A DNA stretch of 64,000 nucleotides from an uncultured bacterium (lineage in GTDB: Bacteria; Bacteroidota; Rhodothermia; Rhodothermales; DASSAV01). A model generated the notes under the pieces. That model ran no database searches and had not been told where the DNA came from. It saw nothing but the letters and a program-made list of their open reading frames with translations. The position numbers and the translations under genes are program-made. Shown here piece by piece: positions 6,992 to 64,000 of the stretch; within the stretch, counting starts at the first letter, position 1, and each line of letters starts with the position of its first letter. The stretch spans positions 231,309 through 295,308 of the forward strand of contig CBINFS010000001.1 in assembly GCA_966250015.1 (NCBI GenBank), given 5' to 3'.

Positions 6992-7378
6992 GGCCTTGCC
7001 CTCCAATCGTGATCGAACGCCCGGATGCGCCTGCCGGCTCACCAGACGAACTACGACGCTTCAACGGTGTTGTTTCGGTCGTAAGTGTCCTAAAATGGGT
7101 CACCTACGCTATCGATCAGTTCAAGAGTTCGCAGGGTATGCCGCTACGTTGTCACCCCGTCGTGTTAGCCTTCCGTTTGGCCTGACTGGTTGTGTCGGAG
7201 ACGTTCCGTTATCAGCCCGCTGTTACACCGCAAGTATGATTGTGGGGCAGCGCCGGTATTCCACAAAAATTATCGGTGTGGGTGAGACGAGCGTGAACCG
7301 GTACGGCCAATCATCCGTTTGGATAGGGGATTCTGAATAAGTGGAGAGCACAGCTCCTTGGAATATTTAGAGCTTCAG

Positions 7379-10351
7379 ATGGACGAACGCATCATCATTC
7401 GAGGCGCTCGCGAGCACAATCTCAAAAACATCGACCTGGACATACCGCGAAACCAGCTGGTCGTGATAACCGGCCTGTCGGGTTCGGGGAAGTCGAGCCT
7501 GGCCTTCGACACGATTTACGCCGAAGGTCAGCGGCGATACATGGAGAGCCTGAGTGCGTACGCGAGGCAGTTTCTCGGGATGATGGAGCGCCCCGACGTC
7601 GATTTCATCGACGGTTTGTCTCCGGTCATTGCCATCGAGCAAAAGACGGTCAGCCGGAACCCTCGCTCGACGGTGGGGACCGTTACGGAGATCTACGACT
7701 TCTTACGCCTTCTTTTTGCGCGGGCGGGTACCGCGTACTCGTACGTCTCCGGCGCCCCGATGCGCAAGCAGTCCGACGACGAGATCATCGACGGCATCCT
7801 CCAGTTTCCGGAGGGCACCCGCGTCCTGATCCTTGCGCCGCTCGTGAAGGGACGAAAAGGCCATTATCGCGAGCTGTTCGAGCAGATCACGCGCCAGGGA
7901 TTCCAGCGCGTCCGCATCGACGGGGAGGTGCGTGAGGTCACACAGGGGATGCGCGTCGACCGGTACAAGACGCACGACATCGAAGTGGTCGTGGACCGGA
8001 TCGTGGTGAAGGAGGGCGTGCGGCCCCGCGTGAGCCAGTCGGTGGAGACGGCGCTCGGGATGGGGAGCGGGACCCTGATTGCCTGCGTCGTCGGCCTCCC
8101 GGAAGACGCTGAAGGAAATTTTCCTTCGGTGCCTTACGACGTCCTGTTCAGCCGGCATTTGTTTAGCCCGGAGGACGGGATCTCCTACGATGATCCGTCC
8201 CCGAACACCTTTTCGTTCAACTCACCCTACGGCGCGTGTCCGGTCTGTAACGGCCTCGGCTCGCAACGCGAGCTCGACATCGATTTGCTTATTCCAGACA
8301 AATCGAAATCGATCGCGGAAGGCGCACTGGCCCCTATTGGCAAACCGCGGGACATCTGGATTTTCAGCCAGCTACGGGCAGTCGCCGACGCCTACGGCTT
8401 CGACTTCGACACGCCATTCAACCGCCTTTCGGAGGAGCAGCAAAACGTGATTCTCCACGGGGCCGGTGACCGGCAGTTCGACATCGTTTATCACTACAAG
8501 GATCGGGAGGTTCGCTACAAGCATCGCTTCGGCGGACTTTTCGAACACCTGCACCACACGTACGACAGCACGACGTCTCCATCGCAACGGAAGTGGGCCG
8601 AGTCCTACATGCGGGAGATGCCCTGCAAGGAGTGCGGAGGAGGCCGGTTAAAACGGGAGAGCCTCTCGTATAGAATCGGCGGGAAAAACATCGCCGAGCT
8701 GGTGGCGATGGACCTGACGTCGCTGCGCCGATTCTTCGACGACGTGGAGTTCAGCGAGCGGAATCGAATCATCGCGGAGCCGATCATAAAAGAGATCTGC
8801 GAGCGGCTCGACTTTTTGATCAACGTCGGAGTAGAGTATCTGAACCTCGATCGTCCGGCGCGGACGCTTTCCGGCGGCGAAAGCCAGCGAATTCGGCTGG
8901 CCACGCAGATCGGCACGCAGCTCGTCGGCGTGCTCTACGTGCTGGACGAACCGAGCATCGGGCTTCACCCGCGGGACAACCATCGGTTGATCGAATCACT
9001 CAAGTTGCTGCGCGACCTCGACAACTCCGTGCTCGTCGTAGAGCACGACCGGGACATGATCGAATCGGCAGATTTCGTCGTTGATCTCGGCCCGGGCGCC
9101 GGTGAGCGTGGAGGAGAGGTCGTTCGAGCGGCATCGCCGAAGGAGTTGCTGGTTTCGTCAAACGGCCACGTGGGCCTGACGGCCTCATACCTGAAAGGGG
9201 AAAAGCACATCGGTGTCCCGAAGCATCGCCGGCCCGGAAATGGCCAGCACCTGCGCCTGTACGGAGCAACCGGACACAACCTCAAGGGGGACACGCTGGA
9301 CCTTCCGCTGGGCATGTTCGTCTGCGTGACGGGCGTGTCCGGATCGGGCAAGTCGAGCCTGATCAACCAAACGTTATATCCGATCCTGGCCGGCCGTTTC
9401 CACCATGCCCGTGAGGTCCCGCTGCCGTACGAACGGATCGAGGGACTCGAACACATCGATAAGGTGATCGACATCGATCAGAGCCCGATCGGCCGTACGC
9501 CCCGGTCGAATCCGGCGACCTACACGGGTCTTTTCAGCCACATCCGCGATCTTTTTGCGCTTCTGCCGGAGTCCAAGATCCGGGGTTATAAGCCCGGCCG
9601 TTTTTCCTTCAACGTGAAGGGAGGACGGTGCGAGACGTGTAAGGGCGCCGGGATCGTAAAGCTGGAGATGAATTTCCTCCCGGACGTCTACGTCGAATGT
9701 GAGACTTGTCACGGCAAACGCTACAACGCCGAGACCCTCGAAGTCCGCTACAAAGGCAAATCCATCGCGGACGTTCTCAACATGACGGTGGCGGAGGCGC
9801 TGGAATTTTTCGAGAACGTGCCCAGGATCGAGCGGAAACTGAGAACGCTTCATTCGGTGGGGCTCGATTACATTCGCCTGGGCCAGCAGGCCACACGCCT
9901 GTCGGGGGGTGAAGCCCAGCGGGTCAAGCTCTCGAAGGAGCTCTCCCGTCCGGGCACGGGGAAAACGCTGTACATCCTGGATGAGCCCACGACGGGTCTA
10001 CATTTCGAGGACATTCGCCAGCTTCTGCTGGTGCTACAGGCACTCGTGCGAAAAGGGAATACGGTGCTCGTCATCGAGCACAACATGGACGTCGTCAAGG
10101 TGGCGGACTGGGTGATCGACATGGGTCCCGAAGGAGGCGAAGCCGGCGGCTCCATCATCTTCTCCGGCACTCCGGAAGACCTGGTCAAAAGCGGCACCTA
10201 CACCGGGCAGGCCCTCAAAATCGAGCTCGAACGATCGGCCTACGCTCCGTCCGAAAACGGCATGGACGAGCTAATCGACCTCGATTCTCTGGTGGCTGAC
10301 GACGAAGAAGCGGACGAAAGCGACCTGGAAGAGGAAGCCGAAGAAGAGTAA
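7379..10351 (+). CDS. uvrA: Excinuclease ABC subunit A (UvrA) with acidic C-terminal tail
   Basis: N-terminus [23 protein letters not shown], two ABC ATPase modules ([25 protein letters not shown] signatures) and zinc-finger cysteines ([16 protein letters not shown]; CETCHGKRY). The ATG at 7379 is preferred over the TTG at 7358. Confidence 0.96.
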
Positions 10352-15876: not shown

Positions 15877-18081
15877 ATGAAAAGCGGATATTTTGTTCTC
15901 TTTGTACTCTTTCTCTATTCAGTGCCCGCCTGGTCGCAGGATCTGGCGCCGATGCAAGTGGATCGGGTCAACGGGCCGATTCAGCTCGACGGACTGCCCT
16001 TCGAGCCGGCGTGGGATGCCATCGAGCCGTTGCCTCTCATCCAGTACGAACCCAACCCCGGTGAACCGGCGACGGAAAAAACGGAGATACGTATCGCCTA
16101 CGACGACGAGTACATCTATTTCTCGATGCGGGCATACGATTCGGACAAGACGGGCATCCGGGCCAATACCCTCTACCGGGACGATCTGAGCGGGGACGAT
16201 CACTTCGAGATTCTGCTCGACACCTTCAACGACAACGAGACAGGCCTCGTCTTTACGACGACCCCTGCCGGCATCCGAAGAGAAGCGGCGGTTTCGAACG
16301 ACGCGAGCGGAGCTTTTAGCGCGTGGTTGAACGTGAGCTTCAACACCTTCTGGGACGTCAAATCCGTCGTCGACGAGCGAGGCTGGTTCACCGAGCTCCG
16401 AATTCCGTTTTCGAGCCTTCGTTTCCAGGACGATAACGGGCGCGTCGTGATGGGATTCAGCGTGCAGCGCAAAATCGCACGCCGCTCGGAGCGGTTGATC
16501 TACCCGCCCGTTTCGCCGAGCATTTCGTGGGGTTTCTTGAAGCCGTCGCTGGCACGCAAGATCGTGTTCGAGGGCGTCTACAGCCGTAAGCCGCTCTACG
16601 TTACCCCTTATGCCTTGAGCGGGCTCGAGCACGCCAGCGGCTTCGATGCGCTCGACAAATCGTGGGGCGAGGACGAGTTCAAGCGGGAAATCGGCGTCGA
16701 CCTGAAATACGGGATCACGAACAATCTCACGCTCGACCTGACCGTCAATACCGATTTTGCGCAGGTGGAAGCCGACGACCAGCTGGTCAATCTGACCCGA
16801 TTTTCGCTCTTTTATCCTGAAAAGCGACAGTTCTTTCAGGAACGCGCCGGGATATTCGAATTCAACACGGGCGGATTGAGCCGCCTTTTCCACAGCAGGA
16901 GGATCGGACTTACTGACGACGGGCAGCCGGTGCGGTTGCTGGGTGGAGCCAGAGTCGTTGGGCGGGTCGGCGATTGGGACCTGGGCTTCATCAACATGCA
17001 GACCGATGAATACCGGGATATTCCGTCGGAGAACTTCGGGGTCCTTCGCGTGAGACGACGCTTCCTGAACGACTATTCGTTTGCCGGAGGTATGGTGACG
17101 AACCGAATTGGTCTGGACGGCACCTACTCGACGGCGTACGGGCTCGACAGTAACATCCGGTTGTTTGGCGACGATTACCTCTCGATTCAGTGGGCGCAGA
17201 CGTTCGACGACCGGATCGTCGACTCCGGTGATTTGAATGGCATCAACTCGGGCCGCGTCAATGCGCTCGTCGAGCGTCGGCGGAGGCAGGGGTTCGGGTA
17301 TGCGACCGGCCTTACCTGGTCGGGACCCCACTTCAACCCGGGTCTCGGTTTTATCCAGCGGTCGGACTTTTCGATGTTTGATCAGACCGTTTCGTATAGC
17401 TGGATACCGGGGTTGACGTCCAGTCTGCTCTGGCACACGCTTGGTTTCCAGGGCGCCGTGTACCTGCGGAATCAGGATCGTTCGGTCGAAACGGCTGAGA
17501 TCGGGCCAGAATACACGTTTGGCCGCAGGTCGGGTTCGACTGGGACTGTCGAGCTCAAGATGATTTACGAGGACCTTCTGTTTCCCTTCTCGCTATCGAA
17601 CGACGCCGTCGTCCCGGCCGGGAGCTACACGTTTTACCAGGCCAACGTGCAGTACCGGATGCCCCAGACGAGTCTCAAACAGATGGGCTTAAACCTCAAC
17701 GTGGGCTCGTTTTACGACGGGCACCGGATCTCAGCCGGATTCACCCCGGCGTGGTACGTATCGAAGCACCTGCGGCTCAGCGGCGAGTACACCTACAATC
17801 TCGTCCGTTTTCCGGATCGCGACCAGCGCTTCGACGCCCACATCGCCCGCCTTCGCATCGGGACCGCGCTGAACACGGCGCTTTCGACGAACGCCTTCGT
17901 GCAATACAACAGTGCGTCCCGGGCGTTCTCGGCCAACGTCAGGTTCCGTTACAACTTCAGGGAAGGGAACGATCTGTGGATCGTGTTCAGCCGGAACGAT
18001 TGGGTGAACATGCGGCCCGTGTTGCCGCTTGCAGACACGCAGACGATCCTCTTGAAGTACACCTACACCTTCGACATGTAG
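15877..18081 (+). CDS. DUF5916-family secreted/outer-membrane protein with N-terminal CBM9-like domain
   Basis: Signal peptide, then a CBM9-like segment (DGLPFEPAWDAIEPL..., YIYFSMRAYD) and a long beta-rich C-terminal region. It is paralogous to the partial ORF at 62673-64000. Confidence 0.65.
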   Translation: MKSGYFVLFVLFLYSVPAWSQDLAPMQVDRVNGPIQLDGLPFEPAWDAIEPLPLIQYEPNPGEPATEKTEIRIAYDDEYIYFSMRAYDSDKTGIRANTLYRDDLSGDDHFEILLDTFNDNETGLVFTTTPAGIRREAAVSNDASGAFSAWLNVSFNTFWDVKSVVDERGWFTELRIPFSSLRFQDDNGRVVMGFSVQRKIARRSERLIYPPVSPSISWGFLKPSLARKIVFEGVYSRKPLYVTPYALSGLEHASGFDALDKSWGEDEFKREIGVDLKYGITNNLTLDLTVNTDFAQVEADDQLVNLTRFSLFYPEKRQFFQERAGIFEFNTGGLSRLFHSRRIGLTDDGQPVRLLGGARVVGRVGDWDLGFINMQTDEYRDIPSENFGVLRVRRRFLNDYSFAGGMVTNRIGLDGTYSTAYGLDSNIRLFGDDYLSIQWAQTFDDRIVDSGDLNGINSGRVNALVERRRRQGFGYATGLTWSGPHFNPGLGFIQRSDFSMFDQTVSYSWIPGLTSSLLWHTLGFQGAVYLRNQDRSVETAEIGPEYTFGRRSGSTGTVELKMIYEDLLFPFSLSNDAVVPAGSYTFYQANVQYRMPQTSLKQMGLNLNVGSFYDGHRISAGFTPAWYVSKHLRLSGEYTYNLVRFPDRDQRFDAHIARLRIGTALNTALSTNAFVQYNSASRAFSANVRFRYNFREGNDLWIVFSRNDWVNMRPVLPLADTQTILLKYTYTFDM

Positions 18082-45497: not shown

Positions 45498-47324
45498 TTG
45501 AGGCCTCTTACGAATGACGGAACAAATCCAATGCACTGGCACGCCGCCCTCTTTATGTTGCCCCTCATACCGGCAGGAGCGATCTGTATTGCGCTCGGTC
45601 TGTTATCCTGGCGGCGCCGTACCGTGGCGGGAGCTTCTGCCTTCTCGTTGCTCATGTTCACCGGGGCATTCTGGGCGCTCACCTATGCGTTGGAGCTGTC
45701 CACCGTCGGGAACGTGGTCCAGAGCCGGTTCTGGAATGGCCTGAAGCTTTCCTCCGCCGCCCTTCTATCGCCTTTTTTTGCCCTTTTCGTTCTCCGTTAC
45801 ACCCGTCAGGCGTGGCTTACGAAACGATTTGCGGCAGGGATACTGGCGCTTCCCCTGCTGGCGGGGTTGTGCCATGCTCTCGTAACCGTACAGGGCACGC
45901 TCATAGCCGGTGACGTCCAATTCAATGAGTTGGATACCCTGGAGGCAGGGTATTACACGCTTTGCAGGCTTGAGCGAGCCTATACCTTCTGCCTCACCCT
46001 TTTCGTTGAGGGAATACTGCTGCGAGAGGCCACGCAGGCTCCCCGTCTGTACAGGCAGCAGGCATTGGTCATGATCCTGGGAGGGGTGATACCGCTTGCC
46101 GGGCTGTTTGCGCCGTTCGTGCTCGAGCGAGAGGTGGGTGGCGCCCTTCCCCTCACGTTCATGCTCGCCGGCACCGGCGTCACCTGGGGGTTCATCCAGT
46201 ACCGGATGCTCGACATCATACCCGCCGCCCGCGACCTCGTCGTCGAGAGCATGAGCGACCTCGTGCTCATCCTGGACGTGCACAACCGGATTGTGGATAT
46301 GAATCCGGCAGCCGAACAGGGATTTGGGTTCTCTGCCGACGAAGTGGGAGGGAGACCACTGGAAACGGTATTTCGTGAGGCAACGAGCTTCCAGGCGGAC
46401 CCGCCGGAAGAGGTGGAAGCACAGGCAGAGATCATCCTTCGAGACGGTGAAGGACCGCGATACTTCGATTTTCGGATCTCCCCTCTCTACGGATGGCGAA
46501 ATCTGCTTGCCGGATGGCTGATCGTCCTGCGGGACGTCACGGAGCGGAAGCTCTACGAAGAAGAGCTGATCCTCGCAAAGGAACAGGCCGAAATCGCGGC
46601 GGACATGAAGTCGGCTCTGTTGAACAACGTCAGCCACGAGCTTCGCACGCCGCTTGCCAGCATCATCGGGTTTGCGCACGTCGTGGCCGAGGAAGTCCCG
46701 CCTGAGCAGAAGGAGTTCATCGAAATCATCGAACAGAATGGCCAGAGGCTGCTGAACACGCTGAACAACATACTCGATCTGGCCCAGCTCAAATCGCGAG
46801 GTCTGACGAGCCGTCCGGAGATATTCGACGCAGCGGCAGAGGTTCGGGAAACGGTGCGTTCGCTCGAGATCATGGCGCGTCTGAAAAACCTGCCCTTACT
46901 GGTATACACACCGGACGAGCGTGTCGAATGCAAGCTTGATCGGAATCATCTCTCCCGCACGCTCACCAACCTGCTCGGCAACGCAATCAAGTTTACGGAG
47001 ACCGGGCACGTATCCGTCCATCTGGACTACGACGACGACACGATCACACTGATCGTCAAAGATACGGGGATCGGGATCAGCGAGTCCTTCAAGCCATTCC
47101 TTTTCCAGGAGTTCAGGCAGGAGAGTACGGGTAATGACCGGTCGTACGGTGGAAACGGGTTGGGGCTCGCCATCACGAGGCATCTCGTCGGGATGATGGG
47201 AGGCACAATATCGGCTGAGAGCCGCCGGAACGCCGGCACCACGTTTACGGTCAGGATTCCGCGATACCCAGATCGTGCCGGAGCGGACAAGGACCTGCAG
47301 CTGGGTGAAGCACAATTCAGCTAA
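45498..47324 (+). CDS. Sensor histidine kinase with N-terminal 7TM sensor region, PAS, HisKA and HATPase domains
   Basis: About 7 TM helices, a PAS domain, the H-box (SHELRTPLASIIGF) and N/G boxes (GNAIKFT, DTGIGI, GGNGLGLAI). Confidence 0.85.
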   Translation: MRPLTNDGTNPMHWHAALFMLPLIPAGAICIALGLLSWRRRTVAGASAFSLLMFTGAFWALTYALELSTVGNVVQSRFWNGLKLSSAALLSPFFALFVLRYTRQAWLTKRFAAGILALPLLAGLCHALVTVQGTLIAGDVQFNELDTLEAGYYTLCRLERAYTFCLTLFVEGILLREATQAPRLYRQQALVMILGGVIPLAGLFAPFVLEREVGGALPLTFMLAGTGVTWGFIQYRMLDIIPAARDLVVESMSDLVLILDVHNRIVDMNPAAEQGFGFSADEVGGRPLETVFREATSFQADPPEEVEAQAEIILRDGEGPRYFDFRISPLYGWRNLLAGWLIVLRDVTERKLYEEELILAKEQAEIAADMKSALLNNVSHELRTPLASIIGFAHVVAEEVPPEQKEFIEIIEQNGQRLLNTLNNILDLAQLKSRGLTSRPEIFDAAAEVRETVRSLEIMARLKNLPLLVYTPDERVECKLDRNHLSRTLTNLLGNAIKFTETGHVSVHLDYDDDTITLIVKDTGIGISESFKPFLFQEFRQESTGNDRSYGGNGLGLAITRHLVGMMGGTISAESRRNAGTTFTVRIPRYPDRAGADKDLQLGEAQFS

Positions 47325-50254
47325 AACGGCACACTGGCCCGGATACGGTAGTAAACCTCGTATTCGTCTCCACTTCCAAAAGCGGACGCGGGTTGCGCCA
47401 CGCCCAGGGCATGGGCAAAGCCGATCACGCCCCCAAGTCTCAGCTCATTTTTGAGCTCAACGCCGACACCGACGCGACGTATGGCGTCGTCGAAGTTGGA
47501 GCCGCTCCAGACCATTCCGGCGTCGGAGAAGAGGGCCAGTGCCGTGCTGCCGAGCGACACGATACCCAGGAGGCGTGTTTGCAAGTCGGGAAGCAAAAGC
47601 ATGCGGTACTCTGCCGTTCCGAACAGCATGCGACTGCCGAGGGCATAGCGACGGAAGCCCCTCACGCGCTCGCTTTCGCCGAGCGTGAAGGGAATGTACT
47701 CGGGAATGTCGAGTTGAATGTCGTCGTGACGTGAAAGGCCAACGTAATCCTGCGCGAACGAATCGCCTTCCTGGATGCGGGCTCGTGCGTAGAGAAAGAG
47801 ACGATGCAAGCCGATACTCCGAATGATGCCGTAGGCAGCCAGATCACCCCGGACGAATCGGCTATCGCCGCCAAGCACGGGCAGGGCAGCTTCGAGCTGC
47901 AAGCGTGCGCCGAACCCGTCGAGCGGGTGGACCGTGTTGAAACGATACGGCCGCTGCTTCCGGTGCGTCAACGAGAGGCGCAAGTCGGCCTGCTGGCCTG
48001 CTTCGGGCGGCGGCAAGCCATCCAGCTCTTCGACGTCTTCGGCGCTGAGCGGGTCGATGTCGACGTATCGCGCTCTGAACCCGAGTCGGGTAGCCGTAAA
48101 CGGGCTTATGCCGACGTCGAGTGGCCACTCGAGGGTGACGTCTCCACCGAGGTAGTTTTCAACGAGCAGCTCGTTTCCATAAAAGCGCGAGGAGCCCGGC
48201 ATATGGTACAGGCTGATCCCGACGGTCGGGTGCCACTGGTTGTTGATGTACGTACCGGCGATCAGGCTCCGTTCCAGGGGTGACGCGAAGGAAAGCCCGC
48301 CGATGGTGGAGAAAATGTGTTTACCGAGCGGCTCGAACCACGTCGTCAGGCCGATGACGCCCCAGTCTTTCGGATTGTCGTAGTAGGGGACAGCGACGGA
48401 AACCGCGTGAGTGACGTTTTTCCACGACCGGTAGTCGTATCGAGCCGTTATGAGTGACGAGTCTTCGGGTATTTCCGCCGGTACTTCGTTCGGGGGCCTG
48501 TGCGTGATCCACGACTGGTAGGCTTTCGGAATGACAGGCGGAGGGTAGGATACCTTTCGTCGGGCGTCGATCCGGTAGGCCCTGTCGTTTTCTTTTGTCT
48601 CGTCGGATACGATCACGAGGCTGCCCGAGGTACGCAGGGAATCGGGCGGAAGCCAGTCGTACGCCGTAGCTCCGGTAGCAAGGTAGGTGACTCGCCGCGT
48701 CGCACCGGTCTCGAGGCTGTGGACGAACACGTTCGGCACCCGATCGCGAAACGACGTGAACGCAATCGACTGGCCGTCGGGGCTCCAGACGGGGAGCCGG
48801 TCGTCGTCACCCTTCTTGCCCGTCGAAAGCACACGCTGCTCGTGTGTTTTCAGGTCGTAAACGACCAGCGAACGCGTTCCGTCCTCGTCGAACAGCGCAT
48901 AGGCCAGCCGGCTGCCGTCGGGACTCCAGGCAACCAACGAGATCTGCACGTCACCGGTGTAGGCAGTCAGGGGCGACTCATTGCCTGTTTCAAGGTCGAG
49001 CAAAAAGAGGTTGGCCGTCCCTGCATCGGAGCCGATGAAGAGGAGCTGAAGGGAGGAGGAGTCGGGAGAAAAGACCGGTGAGGAGGCACGGCGGCCATAC
49101 GTCAGGCGGCGCAGGTTACGCCCGTCCGCGTCCACGACGAAGAGGTCGTTCAGCAATGATCCGTGTTCACTCCTTACGGTTCGCGCAAAAGCCAGCCGTT
49201 TCCCGTCCGGGCTCCACGAGACGGGCGCCTTGATCGACCCCTCCGCCACGATCCGGGTGGATTTACGATCCCGATCAACCACGTACAACCGACGGAAAGG
49301 CCGCTGGAGCGATACCAGCGACAGGACGGCGACGTGCGTCGTGTCGGGGCTGTATTTAATGTCGTACCGGTACTGCCCGGGAAGCTGGAGTGGAGCCGCA
49401 CGGAGCGAATCGGGCCGTTCCATCTGTCCGGCCAGCGTATTGTAGTAGACGTTTACGTGACGCCGCCAGTCGTCAAAAAAACGGCGATACGAGTTATCGG
49501 TTGTCTCCTCGAAGGCGCGGCCGAAGTCGTGCACCTCACCGAGACCGAAAAGCACTCTTTTCCGGTGTTTGAGGAGCTTCGAGAGGGTGGTGTCGCCGTA
49601 CTGATCGGCAAAGTACCGCAACTGGGAATTGCCGGAGGCATACAGGAGCCGTCCGTTCCAGACCGAGCGCCCGTCATTGTAGGAAAGCCGGTCGTCCAGC
49701 ACGGCGGTTCGTAGCCACCGCTCGCCCCGTTGCGCATCCCACACCTCGGTTTCGTACTGGGCGAGCCCTTCTGCCCAGAATCGTGGCATCGGATCGCCGA
49801 AAAGAAAAGATAAAAACCCGAGGTTGGACCGAACCGCGCGAAAGTGGAATAGATGGGTAAGCTCGTGGGCAATCACCTTGCGCAGCCATTTCTCCTCCCC
49901 CGTCCAGACTTCGGCCGCATCGTTGACGTGGACCCAGATATTCGTGTATCCCGTTCCGACGCCGACGGCGAAGCCGTTCGTAATCTCGTCCTCGTCCGAG
50001 AGGTAAATCCGGATTTTCCGGTCGAACGTGACGTCCAAGTTCGCCGACAGGACTTCGTACGCGGCTTCGGCGATGGGCGCGGCTTTGGTTTCGATCCCGC
50101 TGAGGTGCCGCGGGTACATGATCTCGAAGTGTTCGGTCTCCGCCACGAGCCACTTGAGCTCCGGATGGTTGCGCCCGTTATACGTGTTGAAACCCTGGCC
50201 ATGCAGGTCAAACGTCAACAGCAGACCGAAAAACAGGAGGGCAACAATTCGCAT
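47321..50254 (-). CDS. Outer-membrane multidomain protein: zincin HExxH peptidase-like domain + TolB-like beta-propeller + Omp85-type (Bac_surface_Ag) C-terminal barrel
   Basis: Signal peptide, HELTHLFH plus a downstream Glu (WAEGLAQYE), and PD40 repeats (SWSPDGKRLAF, FSPDSSSL, AWSPDGSRLAY, VWSPDGQSIAF). The C-terminal barrel carries the Omp85 loop-6 VRGF motif and a terminal ...SVPF. Confidence 0.7.
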   Translation of the reverse strand: MRIVALLFFGLLLTFDLHGQGFNTYNGRNHPELKWLVAETEHFEIMYPRHLSGIETKAAPIAEAAYEVLSANLDVTFDRKIRIYLSDEDEITNGFAVGVGTGYTNIWVHVNDAAEVWTGEEKWLRKVIAHELTHLFHFRAVRSNLGFLSFLFGDPMPRFWAEGLAQYETEVWDAQRGERWLRTAVLDDRLSYNDGRSVWNGRLLYASGNSQLRYFADQYGDTTLSKLLKHRKRVLFGLGEVHDFGRAFEETTDNSYRRFFDDWRRHVNVYYNTLAGQMERPDSLRAAPLQLPGQYRYDIKYSPDTTHVAVLSLVSLQRPFRRLYVVDRDRKSTRIVAEGSIKAPVSWSPDGKRLAFARTVRSEHGSLLNDLFVVDADGRNLRRLTYGRRASSPVFSPDSSSLQLLFIGSDAGTANLFLLDLETGNESPLTAYTGDVQISLVAWSPDGSRLAYALFDEDGTRSLVVYDLKTHEQRVLSTGKKGDDDRLPVWSPDGQSIAFTSFRDRVPNVFVHSLETGATRRVTYLATGATAYDWLPPDSLRTSGSLVIVSDETKENDRAYRIDARRKVSYPPPVIPKAYQSWITHRPPNEVPAEIPEDSSLITARYDYRSWKNVTHAVSVAVPYYDNPKDWGVIGLTTWFEPLGKHIFSTIGGLSFASPLERSLIAGTYINNQWHPTVGISLYHMPGSSRFYGNELLVENYLGGDVTLEWPLDVGISPFTATRLGFRARYVDIDPLSAEDVEELDGLPPPEAGQQADLRLSLTHRKQRPYRFNTVHPLDGFGARLQLEAALPVLGGDSRFVRGDLAAYGIIRSIGLHRLFLYARARIQEGDSFAQDYVGLSRHDDIQLDIPEYIPFTLGESERVRGFRRYALGSRMLFGTAEYRMLLLPDLQTRLLGIVSLGSTALALFSDAGMVWSGSNFDDAIRRVGVGVELKNELRLGGVIGFAHALGVAQPASAFGSGDEYEVYYRIRASVPF

Positions 50255-50501
50255 GGGGACGGAACGTCTCAAAACGATGCTGGAGAAACGTACGGTGTTG
50301 AATATACAGCCCAAAACCGCTACGCCACAGGGAGAAAGACTGCTATTTCGTCCTAGACAGTTACCGCCACCAGCCGAAAAAAGAGCCAGGCCTCCTACTT
50401 TTCCGACTGTTCCAATTTAGGGGAGCGAAACGCCGTTTGGATTGTTATGAGGAGTGTGGAGTCCGAATAGGGTCGTTATCCCTTCTGGAGGCGTTACGCA
50501 G

Positions 50502-61041: not shown

Positions 61042-61440
61042 CTACTCTAGATCATTCACGACAAAACAGTCCGCTTCGATCTCAACGAGCCAGTCGGGGT
61101 CGATGAGGCGGCTGACCTCGACGAACGTAGACGCCGGCCGGACGTCAGCAAAGAACTCGCCGTGCGCCCTCGCGGCTTCCTCCCAGCGGGAGACGTCCGT
61201 CAGCATGACGCGGGTGCGGACGACGTCTTTTTTCGATCCCCCTGCTTCCCTCACGGCCTTGAGGATGATCTCGAGGCAGCGGAGAGTCTGGCCGTAGAGG
61301 TCGCCGGGGCAGGCGGTGGATCCGTCGTCTGCGATGGGGGCGGTCCCGGAGACCGAGATGATGGGACCGACACGGACAGCTCTCGAAAAACCGATGGCCG
61401 GCTCGTATGGCGAACCTGAGGAAACGTTTTTGCGAGTCAT
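61042..61440 (-). CDS. ridA: RidA/YjgF family reactive intermediate deaminase
   Basis: YjgF/chorismate-mutase-like fold signature (AVRVGPIISVSGTAP...). The start is taken at MTRKNVSSG. Confidence 0.8.
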   Translation of the reverse strand: MTRKNVSSGSPYEPAIGFSRAVRVGPIISVSGTAPIADDGSTACPGDLYGQTLRCLEIILKAVREAGGSKKDVVRTRVMLTDVSRWEEAARAHGEFFADVRPASTFVEVSRLIDPDWLVEIEADCFVVNDLE

Positions 61441-61638
61441 TTCGGTGGGTAAAAGCGCGATCAGGCCGATCTTAGCGTCTTGGTGAATCGAATCTGCCCG
61501 TCGTCGAGGGTAGCAGGGCGGAGGTTTATGGATTTTAAACTGGGTGAAGGAGCCAAAAGCCGACTTTCTATGCGCGACCAATTACAATTGTTGGAACCAC
61601 GGATCGCTGACAGTAATCATTTCACTTCTGAAAGAGTT

Positions 61639-62088
61639 TTACGCCTCTTCCAGTTCGTCCTCATATTCGATGACGTCATCAGGGCCATTCTTAACGGCTT
61701 CGAGAACGACCATTGGATAACGCATGGCGACGGTCAGAAGTGTACGCGCCGGTCCGCGTGGATCTCGCCGACCCTGTTCCCATTCCTGAAGGGTTCGTTT
61801 GCTTATTCCAAGTAGCTCGGCAAAGCCATCCTGCGTTTGCCGCAACCGTTCCCGGATTTTTCTTATCGGAATCTCACCTTTTGCCGCTCCAACTGGTTTT
61901 CCGTTGAAGGCTTTTTTGAGATCATTTGCGGCACTTTCGAGGTCCCAGGTTACGCGCCCGTTTTCCTTCACTTCAAGCAATACCTTGCCCGAGTACGTGA
62001 ACGTACGGGAAGGAATGCTTTGCCCTTTCTTGATGGCCACCATTTCACGAACGCTTTCTTTGAGCCGTTCGAAATCCCTGGGGTCCAT
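61639..62088 (-). CDS. higA: HigA-2-like antitoxin (XRE-family HTH at C-terminus)
   Basis: N-terminus MDPRDFERLKESVREM and a C-terminal HTH (LRQTQDGFAELLGISKRTLQEWEQGRRDPRGPARTLL) resemble Vibrio HigA-2. It has an ATG start with a GAGAGGTGAG Shine-Dalgarno sequence. Confidence 0.75.
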   Translation of the reverse strand: MDPRDFERLKESVREMVAIKKGQSIPSRTFTYSGKVLLEVKENGRVTWDLESAANDLKKAFNGKPVGAAKGEIPIRKIRERLRQTQDGFAELLGISKRTLQEWEQGRRDPRGPARTLLTVAMRYPMVVLEAVKNGPDDVIEYEDELEEA

Positions 62089-62116
62089 GGCTCACCTCTC
62101 CTGTTTCGTAGCAGCG

Positions 62117-62442
62117 TTATTGCTTTAGTTCCTTCAGGATCGTAACCAACTCTCTTAGCTCCCGCTTCGTCAAGTCCGATTTCTCATTCTTGCTATAGAC
62201 GTCGAGAAAGAAAATTTGGTGGTCGTCGACGAACCAGTAATAGATAACCCGAGCACCTCCACTTTTACCTCGGCCACTCGCCTTGATACGAACCTTTCGC
62301 AAACCGCCGCCGCCACTGATAAGAGGTCCTTATTCGGGATTCTCAATGAGTATAAGCTGAAGCTGCCGATAATCTTCGTCACTTACACGATCGGCGAGTC
62401 GTTTTGTGAAAGATGGTAGTTCGGCAAACTCCAGGGGCCGAG
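62117..62442 (-). pseudogene. higB: HigB-2-like (RelE/ParE superfamily) toxin gene disrupted by in-frame TAA and lacking a start codon
   Basis: The C-terminal half (GGGGLRKVRIKASGRGKSGGARVIYYW...FLDVYSKNEKSDLTKRELREL) and the N-terminal half (FTKRLADRVSDEDYRQLQLILIENPE) lie in the same frame, separated by a TAA at 62330-62332. A further in-frame stop sits at 62443-62445 with no ATG between. Confidence 0.7.
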
Positions 62443-62603
62443 ATTACGGCTTGATGCCGTCTCTCACACGACTCACCACTATTACGTACGGCAATGACGT
62501 ACAAGGGTTTCGAGGTGAATTAACCAATCCGGAGCGCCAAAGACAAGAGGTAAAAGTGAGCTCAGTCGGATGTGCCTTGGACAGGCCTGCAAATGAAAGG
62601 TGC

Positions 62604-62658
62604 TTTCTAAAACGCGAGGATGGCACCCGGTTAAATCATATACCCGGGCGCCATCCTC
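62604..62658 (-). terminator. Terminator after the DUF5916 paralog
   Basis: GAGGATGGCACCCGG-loop-CCCGGGCGCCATCCTC (one mismatch), followed by a U-rich tract on the minus-strand transcript. Confidence 0.7.
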
Positions 62659-62672
62659 AAACCTGAATACTT

Positions 62673-64000
62673 CTACCGCTGGAACAGGTACTGGAACTTG
62701 AAGAACACCTGGCGGCTGGTGCGGATGAAGCCGTAGGGCTCGTCGTACTCGCCGTACCCGTGGGTCGAGCCGACGTAGAACACGGTGAAGGGATTGATCT
62801 TGTACGACAACAGGGGCTCGAGCGACAGCACTTCGTCGAATTCGTTGTACTGGGTGATCAGGCGCACCGAGAGCTCGCGCGAGAACTGGTAGCCCATGCC
62901 GGTACGAAGGATGAAGCCCTCGTAAAACTTCTCGTCGGAATCCAGCTTCTTCAGCCGGGAGTAGTTGAGCGACGAGGAGAAGGTGAGGCGGGGCAACGGC
63001 CTGATCGTCAGGTTTGAACCCGCCGAAAGCCTGCGCCCGGCGACCGGAACGTCTTCGTTCCGCGCGATGTCGCGCCCGAACGACACGTACCCGCCTCCGT
63101 TGATCTTGTCGCTGAAGTTGGTATTGACGTTGACCAGGCCGGTGACCAGCCCGCTGAAGTCGACGTCTTTGTACCGTTCGCGTTTTGCCACGACCTCGGT
63201 ATAGAGGTACGTCTGCCCTTTCAGCTCGGCGCTGAGGCTCGGAACGATTGCCTCGTCCTTTTTCCCCCACCCGTAATCCATCGTCTTGACGAAGAACACG
63301 CCAGGCGACAGGCGGACGAAGAAGCTGTTTTTGGGGTAGACGTGGATGCGCTGGTAGGTCCTCAGCTGGTGCCGGTCGTTCAGCGTCACGAAGCCGTTGT
63401 CGGTGCGGAAGGTCGGGCTGTAGGCGGAGTAGTCGGCCCCGAAGTTCCAGTGTCGCGTGCCGCGGTCGAGGGTGGTATAGAAAGCGAACCCCTGGAACGA
63501 CTCGCCGTCGAAGCCGATCGTGTGCCGGCCGTTGGCGAAGGTGCCCTCGTCGAGGTCTTCGGTCAGCGAGGGGTCGTCCGGCTCCACCGTGCTGCTCAGG
63601 GCGACCTGGGTCTCCAGGGTGTAATTCTTAAAAAACTGCAACCGGAGGTCCGAGCTGATGACGGTACCCGAGCCGCCGTCGAACAGGCGGCGGTCGGTGA
63701 CGATGCCGCCGACGAACGAGTTGTTCCCCAGGGAATGGCGCACGCGCAGGATGTTCGATACGCTACGCCCGGCGGTAACGAGCTCGCTCCGGTCCTGGAA
63801 CGGCATCAGCATCGGTGTGGCGTCGTCGACGGCCGAGAGGAAGCCGATGCGGGTCTGCCCCATCCGGCCGGTCATCTTGGCTGCGGCGATCGGGCTGTTG
63901 ATGGAGCGGGTGTAGACCACGTTCAGCCAGCTATTGAACATGTCGGCGCCTTCCTGGAAGAACGGGCGGCGCTCGGGATAAAAGAGCGCAACGGTCGAGT
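62673..64000 (-). CDS. DUF5916-family outer-membrane/secreted protein, N-terminus beyond window end
   Basis: The frame stays open to the window edge. It has clear similarity to 15877-18081 (ILRVRHSLGNNSFVGGIVTDRRLFDGGSGTVISSDLRLQF vs VLRVRRRFLNDYSFAGGMVTNRIGLDGTYSTAYGLDSNIRLF). Confidence 0.65.
   Translation of the reverse strand, partial: STVALFYPERRPFFQEGADMFNSWLNVVYTRSINSPIAAAKMTGRMGQTRIGFLSAVDDATPMLMPFQDRSELVTAGRSVSNILRVRHSLGNNSFVGGIVTDRRLFDGGSGTVISSDLRLQFFKNYTLETQVALSSTVEPDDPSLTEDLDEGTFANGRHTIGFDGESFQGFAFYTTLDRGTRHWNFGADYSAYSPTFRTDNGFVTLNDRHQLRTYQRIHVYPKNSFFVRLSPGVFFVKTMDYGWGKKDEAIVPSLSAELKGQTYLYTEVVAKRERYKDVDFSGLVTGLVNVNTNFSDKINGGGYVSFGRDIARNEDVPVAGRRLSAGSNLTIRPLPRLTFSSSLNYSRLKKLDSDEKFYEGFILRTGMGYQFSRELSVRLITQYNEFDEVLSLEPLLSYKINPFTVFYVGSTHGYGEYDEPYGFIRTSRQVFFKFQYLFQR

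Follow-up and report, generated by a model that had tools for sequence, protein, structure and literature searches.

The 64-kb stretch of DNA analysed here (64,000 nucleotides of contig CBINFS010000001.1 from an uncultured Rhodothermales bacterium; hereafter the window) carries on its minus strand a two-gene toxin–antitoxin (TA) locus. It comprises a higB-2 toxin pseudogene of the RelE-superfamily ribosome-dependent mRNase type, which would span 105 codons plus a stop if read through, and an intact higA-2-type antitoxin gene of 149 amino acids (aa). The two genes stand in inverted order on the same strand, with the toxin (62434–62117) separated by a 28-nucleotide (nt) spacer from the antitoxin (62088–61639), and this toxin-first arrangement recurs in three other contigs (L011, L105, and L106). 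Read from 62500 to 62117, a single minus-strand frame translates as ...IKP*, SRP, L, EFAELPSFTKRLADRVSDEDYRQLQLILIENPE, *, GPLISGGGGLRKVRIKASGRGKSGGARVIYYWFVDDHQIFFLDVYSKNEKSDLTKRELRELVTILKELKQ*. Because gene order, toxin family, and antitoxin type agree, the locus can be assigned on its sequence to the HigBA-2-type modules, and the window allele reads as a degenerate member of that family, homologous to a working TA module but apparently not one itself.

The family assignment of the toxin remnant is firm despite its interruption. With the internal stop masked, the frame matched Pfam family PF06296 (RelE/HigB-2 family) at 41.4 bits against a cutoff of 27 (E = 1.9e-10), while NCBIfam and PADLOC returned no toxin match. 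A database search retrieved 243 toxin homologues, of which the top ones are intact 105-aa proteins at 96% (P0001) and 89% (P0002) identity, and the homologues begin with M-E-F-I-E exactly at the position where the window reads L(CTG)-E-F-A-E. The closest of these, an intact allele, aligned without gaps to the Vibrio cholerae HigB2 (VcHigB2) chains over residues 3–101 (E ~3e-23). The catalytic residues established in VcHigB2 by mutagenesis, Arg51, Arg64, Tyr82, and Lys84 (PMC5416850), correspond to R49, R62, Y80, and K82 here; all four are still encoded in the window, and they are invariant or near-invariant across 16 aligned homologues. A predicted structure of the intact allele (AlphaFold2, AF2; pLDDT 90.1, pTM 0.84) contains strands at residues 2–5, 46–50, 61–68, and 73–81 and helices at 7–16, 19–31, and 90–104, i.e., a RelE-like topology with a β-sheet core, two N-terminal helices, and a C-terminal α3. 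The best 11 matches of this model in a Foldseek search of the PDB were all VcHigB2, with template modelling (TM) scores of 0.76–0.86, followed by E. coli RelE. E. coli RelBE shares with the module the RelE superfamily fold (Foldseek TM ~0.6) and a RelE-like active site (PMC5416850), but it has the opposite gene order, an unrelated ribbon-helix-helix (RHH) antitoxin, RelB, and only ~15% identity. The toxin family was found across many phyla, although the matches listed in a toxin-alignment scan of genome contigs were only distant (≤55% identity), and the window's own species was absent among them. The likeness to V. cholerae HigB-2 noticed in the original prediction is therefore far beyond chance, and the HigB-2/HigA-2 assignment made there is supported by sequence, fold, gene order, and the operator evidence described below.

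Two single-base lesions separate the window allele from a complete toxin gene. The first is the loss of the ancestral start, ATG to CTG (62432–62434, minus strand; variable base 62434), and the second a nonsense codon, TAA, at codon 35 (62330–62332, minus strand; variable base 62330), where the ancestral codon is TAC (Tyr). Alignment to orthologous loci showed a Tyr sense codon at this position both in alleles of the same species (TAC) and in the sister-species contig L105 (TAT), so that the nonsense inactivation originally proposed, including the exact position of this stop, is borne out. In the AF2 model the stop falls in the loop after helix α2, ahead of the β-sheet core and of all four catalytic residues, and a product ending at codon 35 would consist of strand β0 and two helices, with no catalytic residue. 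The original prediction had also placed a second stop at 62443–62445, where the start codon should be. This in-frame TAA in fact lies one base further on (62444–62446, minus strand), three codons upstream of the ancestral start, and belongs to the native 5' untranslated region: all alleles carry it, intact ones included ("*SRPMEF..."), which removes it as a candidate lesion and leaves the start loss as the actual second one.

Downstream of the CTG, no canonical in-frame start occurs before a TTG at codon 45 (62300–62302), which would open a residual 61-aa open reading frame (ORF; 62117–62302, minus strand) covering the β-sheet core and α3. This fragment alone still matched PF06296 (E = 7.4e-9). 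However, inspection of the sequence ahead of the TTG revealed no convincing ribosome-binding site, and the exact 61-aa protein is missing from a collection of 15 billion proteins, meaning that gene callers do not call it; it is probably not a real product. With a CTG start and a TAA at codon 35, the window thus lacks a complete translatable toxin ORF, and its allele would represent an orphan antitoxin, an intact antitoxin without a functional cognate toxin. An alternative genetic code or programmed recoding was considered and is unlikely, as the other ORFs of the window are long and normal and the site alternates with an ordinary Tyr codon.

The antitoxin gene is undamaged, as originally described. 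Its 149-aa ORF (61639–62088, minus strand) is preceded by a Shine-Dalgarno sequence, GGAGAGGTGA (62092–62101, minus strand), which lies 4–13 nt upstream of the ATG as read from the sequence, and its translation should therefore be independent of that of the toxin. A C-terminal XRE-type helix-turn-helix (HTH) domain occupies aa 75–128 (nt 61705–61866; HTH_3 E = 6e-7), and over these same residues the closest solved relative is V. cholerae HigA2 (VcHigA2; E = 1.2e-8). As in V. cholerae, this domain follows an N-terminal region without HTH; by analogy these ~74 residues are presumed to neutralise the toxin. Here, however, the antitoxin has 149 aa against 104 aa in V. cholerae, and its extended N-terminal part is dissimilar: residues 1–74 showed neither a family match nor similarity to the disordered region of VcHigA2. 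An identical antitoxin protein was found on 47 contigs, and 14 aligned loci contained one synonymous and no non-synonymous single-nucleotide polymorphism (SNP), a low diversity in a sample partly chosen by identical antitoxin. Three rare amino-acid variants exist elsewhere, namely M122I (P0122), I25F (P0123), and L38R (at the end of contig L095).

Upstream of the operon, a candidate HigA-2 operator was identified as an inverted repeat, GTACG-N7-CGTAC, at 62486–62502, 52–68 nt upstream of the start. This pattern occurs once in the 64-kb window, with 0.03 occurrences expected by chance, and it has the same core and the same spacing as the V. cholerae HigA2 operator, TGTACGC-N5-GCGTACA, which has been footprinted and crystallised (PMC11006873). 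In the sister species the repeat is weaker (ATACG...CGTAG). Of the four VcHigA2 residues that contact bases (Arg68, Glu71, Asn72, and Arg77), both arginines are kept here as R98 and R107, whereas the other two are changed (E71 to Q and N72 to E). The repeat lies within a conserved 5' region of the operon, the presumed promoter and operator (62454–62554, minus strand; approximately −20 to −120 from the ancestral toxin start). Identity between the window and L105 reached 67/80 (84%) from −20 to −100 and 87/110 from 0 to −110, and it dropped to a random level further upstream (48/130, 37%). We infer that the operon promoter lies within this conserved block. An A/G polymorphism at 62483 (TAATAG vs. 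TGATAG; G in the sister species), three bases downstream of the operator-like repeat, could be within a −10-like element.

Directly after the stop of the neighbouring DUF5916 gene (62673), a hairpin with a 16-bp stem followed by GCGUUUUAG was predicted at 62615–62659 (minus strand). Its minimum free energy of −36 kcal/mol (z = −4.5) was matched by none of 200 shuffled sequences. A consensus terminator scan of 61400–62750 missed this hairpin, the U-tract of which has only 4 U, yet it probably represents an intrinsic terminator isolating the TA operon from upstream transcription, in which case the operon needs its own promoter. These features support, without proving, an antitoxin that still autoregulates an intact promoter.

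To place the window allele among its relatives, related loci were collected with the antitoxin, two variants of it, intact forms of the toxin, and the flanking RidA-family protein as exact-sequence queries, and by one DNA-pattern scan of JGI metagenomes, which gave only two extra contigs. The same chromosomal locus was recovered from ~20 samples, always in the context DUF5916, higB-2, higA-2, RidA, and epimerase, and the look-up with the flanking RidA protein found no strain with an empty site. Twenty-three distinct contigs span the whole toxin region. Base 62434, at the start, is A in 16 of these 23 and C in 7, and base 62330, at codon 35, is A (TAA) in 12 and C (Tyr) in 11. Since five contigs had been found via intact toxins, the remaining 18, retrieved without a toxin query, constitute the unbiased set, in which ATG with TAA was the most frequent combination (9/18), followed by CTG with Tyr (4/18), CTG with TAA, i.e., the state of the window (3/18), and the intact ATG with Tyr (2/18); the five contigs from the intact-toxin queries are likewise intact. 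In one contig named as a k=141 assembly (L163), ATG and Tyr occur together; the two lesion sites are 105 nt apart, and at least in this case the phase of an intact haplotype is secure. With at least 12 independent assemblies showing it, the stop is a real and common allele rather than an assembly error, and the same species-level population also contains sense and ATG alleles. The allele counts themselves rest on an opportunistic set of contigs.

Two further observations concern the alleles. In 13 aligned contigs the A/C variant at 62434 was always paired with AT/GC at 62425/62424 (Ile4/Ala4), 9–10 nt away, while the ENA contig L163, added later, combines ATG with GCC and breaks this pairing, which suggests that the start-codon change came as a short imported tract or multi-nucleotide event and was followed by recombination. 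The four-gamete criterion was set aside as unsafe evidence of recombination, since contigs from short-k assemblies may be mosaics and L163 alone phases the two lesion sites. In addition, gene callers leave a 580-nt "intergenic" gap at the toxin in every lesion-bearing contig, and existing annotations therefore hide both the pseudogene and the TA nature of the 149-aa "transcriptional regulator".

Sequence divergence and polymorphism give opposite pictures of constraint on the toxin. The sister-species contig L105, which carries P0002, has the same DUF5916 gene end at the left, an intact toxin (ATG, TAT), and a 149-aa antitoxin. Between L105 and the intact allele L011, the ratio of non-synonymous to synonymous substitution rates (dN/dS) was 0.042 for the toxin and 0.093 for the antitoxin, and the low toxin value indicates strong constraint over the longer term. 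Within the population, by contrast, 8 sites segregate along the 318 nt of the toxin gene, and 7 of these are non-synonymous or knock-out changes. This ratio of 7:1 differs significantly from that of the well-sampled flanking genes combined (18:44; Fisher p = 0.0024), which include DUF5916 (6:29) and RidA (2:5), and a McDonald-Kreitman-type contrast of the polymorphic 7:1 with ~13.5 non-synonymous and 44.5 synonymous fixed differences gave p ~0.0008. Such a pattern indicates that constraint was lost recently or that loss was selected for.

Diversity is also patchy along the locus. The 8 toxin SNPs are all confined to the initial 109 nt of the gene, and a low-diversity block formed by the toxin C-terminus and the antitoxin (61639–62325; 1 SNP per 450 nt in the antitoxin) contrasts with the adjoining 62326–62434 and with the flanks, where 35 SNPs, 29 of them synonymous, were counted over 2262 nt of DUF5916 and 7 over 399 nt of RidA. 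Because synonymous sites of the antitoxin are depleted too, this block looks like a young or swept segment and is not proof of a functional C-terminal fragment. No gene in this neighbourhood is more polymorphic than the DUF5916 gene beside the TA pair, yet that gene clearly evolves under purifying selection (29 synonymous to 6 non-synonymous SNPs).

Taken together, we consider it very likely that the window carries a decaying HigBA-2 operon, in which two single-base lesions have killed the toxin, both lesions still vary within a population where intact alleles are a minority, and the antitoxin and its operator remain untouched. By analogy with V. cholerae HigBA2, the intact form would encode HigB-2 as a RelE-like ribosome-dependent mRNA endonuclease, which HigA-2 would neutralise via its N-terminal region, while a HigA-2 dimer would bind GTACG-N7-CGTAC through its HTH and repress the operon. 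The window allele, with its CTG start and its TAA at codon 35, would make no toxin, and transcripts starting at the conserved autoregulated promoter would presumably still cross the dead toxin gene and reach the antitoxin. Strong purifying selection would have acted on the toxin until recently, with constraint lost since, and the locus would have taken the first step of TA decay, in which toxin knock-outs are tolerated and antitoxin knock-outs are lethal while any toxin remains. Family membership, both lesions and their polymorphism, the shift in selection, and the operator-like repeat are shown directly, whereas the biochemical activities, the actual expression, and the reason for antitoxin retention are inferred parts of this scheme.

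Several observations weigh against this interpretation or limit it. All of the biochemistry is transferred from V. cholerae HigBA2 at 36–39% identity, and a sigma-70 promoter consensus scan of 61400–62750 found nothing. Most contigs are short-k metagenome assemblies, in which the linkage between the start site and codon 35 is insecure, and assembly could have merged co-occurring strains into consensus mosaics in the case of the window's double-lesion haplotype and of some "intact" contigs. No SNP falls in the final 209 nt of the toxin gene, which would also fit continued constraint on the C-terminus. Finally, CTG initiates translation weakly in bacteria, at ~0.1–1% of the level of ATG in E. 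coli reporters, and because it can initiate at this low level, the CTG allele with Tyr may be weakened rather than null.

A refinement of this interpretation, rather than a contradiction of it, holds that the loss of the toxin is adaptive or balanced, with two knock-outs and an intact allele maintained or driven by selection, for example through the cost of the toxin against a benefit in abortive infection or against mobile genetic elements, and with the antitoxin kept as immunity against the HigB-2 of intact alleles, phages, or plasmids (anti-addiction) or as a transcription factor. We regard this as possible though rather unlikely. Two distinct knock-outs are indeed at intermediate frequency (TAA in 12/18 and CTG in 7/18 unbiased contigs), another four polymorphisms that change amino acids are concentrated in the first 37 codons, the toxin was under strong constraint between species (dN/dS 0.04), viral contigs often carry genes of the HigB-2 family (53 loci at 34–56% identity; PHROG 5869), and orphan antitoxins have been widely proposed in such a role (PMC7192599). 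Simple relaxation with drift and recombination, however, is equally expected to give this pattern; no HigB-2 above 55% identity was found on viral contigs, and the 64-kb window has no second copy of higB-2 or higA-2; and the opportunistic allele counts combine with an antitoxin diversity that gives no power to detect selection. That toxin inactivation is selected or balanced in a wild Rhodothermales population, with the near-invariant segment of toxin C-terminus and antitoxin having been swept, is a tentative proposition with the odds against it. If it were true, the antitoxin, possibly with a CTG-initiated toxin at low dose, would be the selected unit, e.g., as immunity against phages or plasmids bearing HigB-2.

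It is considerably less probable that the toxin is still functional and the antitoxin thus still needed, whether by initiation at CTG, by read-through of the TAA, or as a truncated or split toxin, in which the 61-aa C-terminal ORF (from TTG 62302) might be complemented by the 34-aa N-terminal peptide of the ATG alleles with TAA. The frame of the CTG allele with Tyr is fully open, the stop sits in a loop between α2 and the β-sheet core, every catalytic residue lies downstream of it within the 61-aa ORF, and in the 23 contigs the 209 nt past the lesion have acquired no frameshift or new stop, just as they lack SNPs. Yet TAA, the most efficient stop codon in bacteria, alternates within this one population with a plain Tyr codon, unlike a programmed recoding site, and read-through or a split toxin, already the less favoured option in the original prediction, is disfavoured on this ground. 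The 61-aa fragment, never called by gene callers and without a good Shine-Dalgarno sequence before its TTG, would also lack strand β0, helices α1–α2, and the invariant Gly-rich loop G36–G44, and the low diversity extends to the synonymous sites of the antitoxin (1 SNP per 450 nt), which points to a young or swept segment rather than to protein constraint. A last alternative, that the stops are artefacts of sequencing or assembly or of a chimeric consensus, is scarcely credible: although the window is seemingly metagenome-derived and related haplotypes look shuffled over 30–100 nt, as is typical of a mixed-strain consensus, 12 contigs carry the TAA and 7 the CTG, their samples and assemblers (SPAdes, MEGAHIT, Logan, and JGI) are separate, each variant is tightly linked to SNPs 4–10 nt away (62326; 62424/62425), unlike random errors, and error is rejected for both lesions, leaving doubt only as to whether both lie on one molecule.

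The decaying operon can be set beside several known systems. V. cholerae HigBA2 (PDB 5JA8, 5JAA, and 8A0X) has the same toxin-first order, a toxin to which the one described here aligns end to end at 36–39% identity (TM 0.76–0.86 for the model) with its four catalytic residues, and a mapped operator whose GTACG core and spacing recur in the inverted repeat upstream of the present locus; it differs in that the toxin here is a pseudogene, through start loss and nonsense, and in that the locus lies outside a superintegron and in a Rhodothermales-like host instead of Vibrio. In well-sampled species, orphan antitoxins are often found next to the degraded toxins of type II TA loci, as a survey of Klebsiella pneumoniae illustrates (PMC7192599), and the candidate explanations are the same as here: decay remnant, anti-addiction, or regulator. 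Unlike in that survey, decay is still polymorphic here, with two independent single-base knock-outs and intact alleles at one site. Toxin-first decay of a TA module is hence a known kind of event, which is well documented at this locus. The chromosomal ccdAB-type module of Erwinia chrysanthemi reportedly protects against the ccd of the F plasmid, as was shown experimentally for an intact pair. The concept of a chromosomal antitoxin neutralising the related toxin of a mobile element is the same, but there the pair is intact, whereas the antitoxin described here would be at most a candidate for such a role. It may be kept as an anti-addiction module, as the original prediction suggested, as a regulator, or as protection from intact alleles that recombination brings in, although its diversity is too low to measure selection; its intactness may also simply reflect how recent the toxin lesions are.

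For annotation, the region is to be read as a higB-2 pseudogene with an intact higA-2, and not as an empty intergenic gap. Of modest wider value, the locus captures the onset of TA decay in nature with unusual clarity: intact, start-loss, and nonsense alleles share one chromosomal site in an uncultured lineage, and the strong purifying selection measured between species gives way to relaxed or loss-favouring evolution within the population, while the antitoxin is unchanged and the operator conserved. It overturns nothing known, but provides a tractable test case of whether orphan antitoxins are kept by selection or by recency.

The wider context of the window is in keeping with a chromosomal locus. 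No integrase or other mobile-element gene flanks the TA pair, and the left flank shared with the sister species indicates vertical inheritance. A UvrA protein encoded at 7358–10351 is 76–80% identical to the UvrA of Rhodothermales/Rhodothermaceae metagenome-assembled genomes and of Rhodothermus marinus, which marks the host as an uncultured Rhodothermales-like bacterium. No tRNA gene and no Rfam family at gathering threshold was detected in the 64 kb. Besides the DUF5916 gene next to the TA locus (62673–64000, minus strand), a paralogous DUF5916 protein is encoded at 15877–18081 on the plus strand, the two being about 753 and 734 aa long, respectively. A 997-aa protein encoded at 47321–50314 (minus strand) has an uncommon architecture, in which PD40/WD40-like β-propeller repeats are joined to an Omp85-superfamily domain at the C-terminus.

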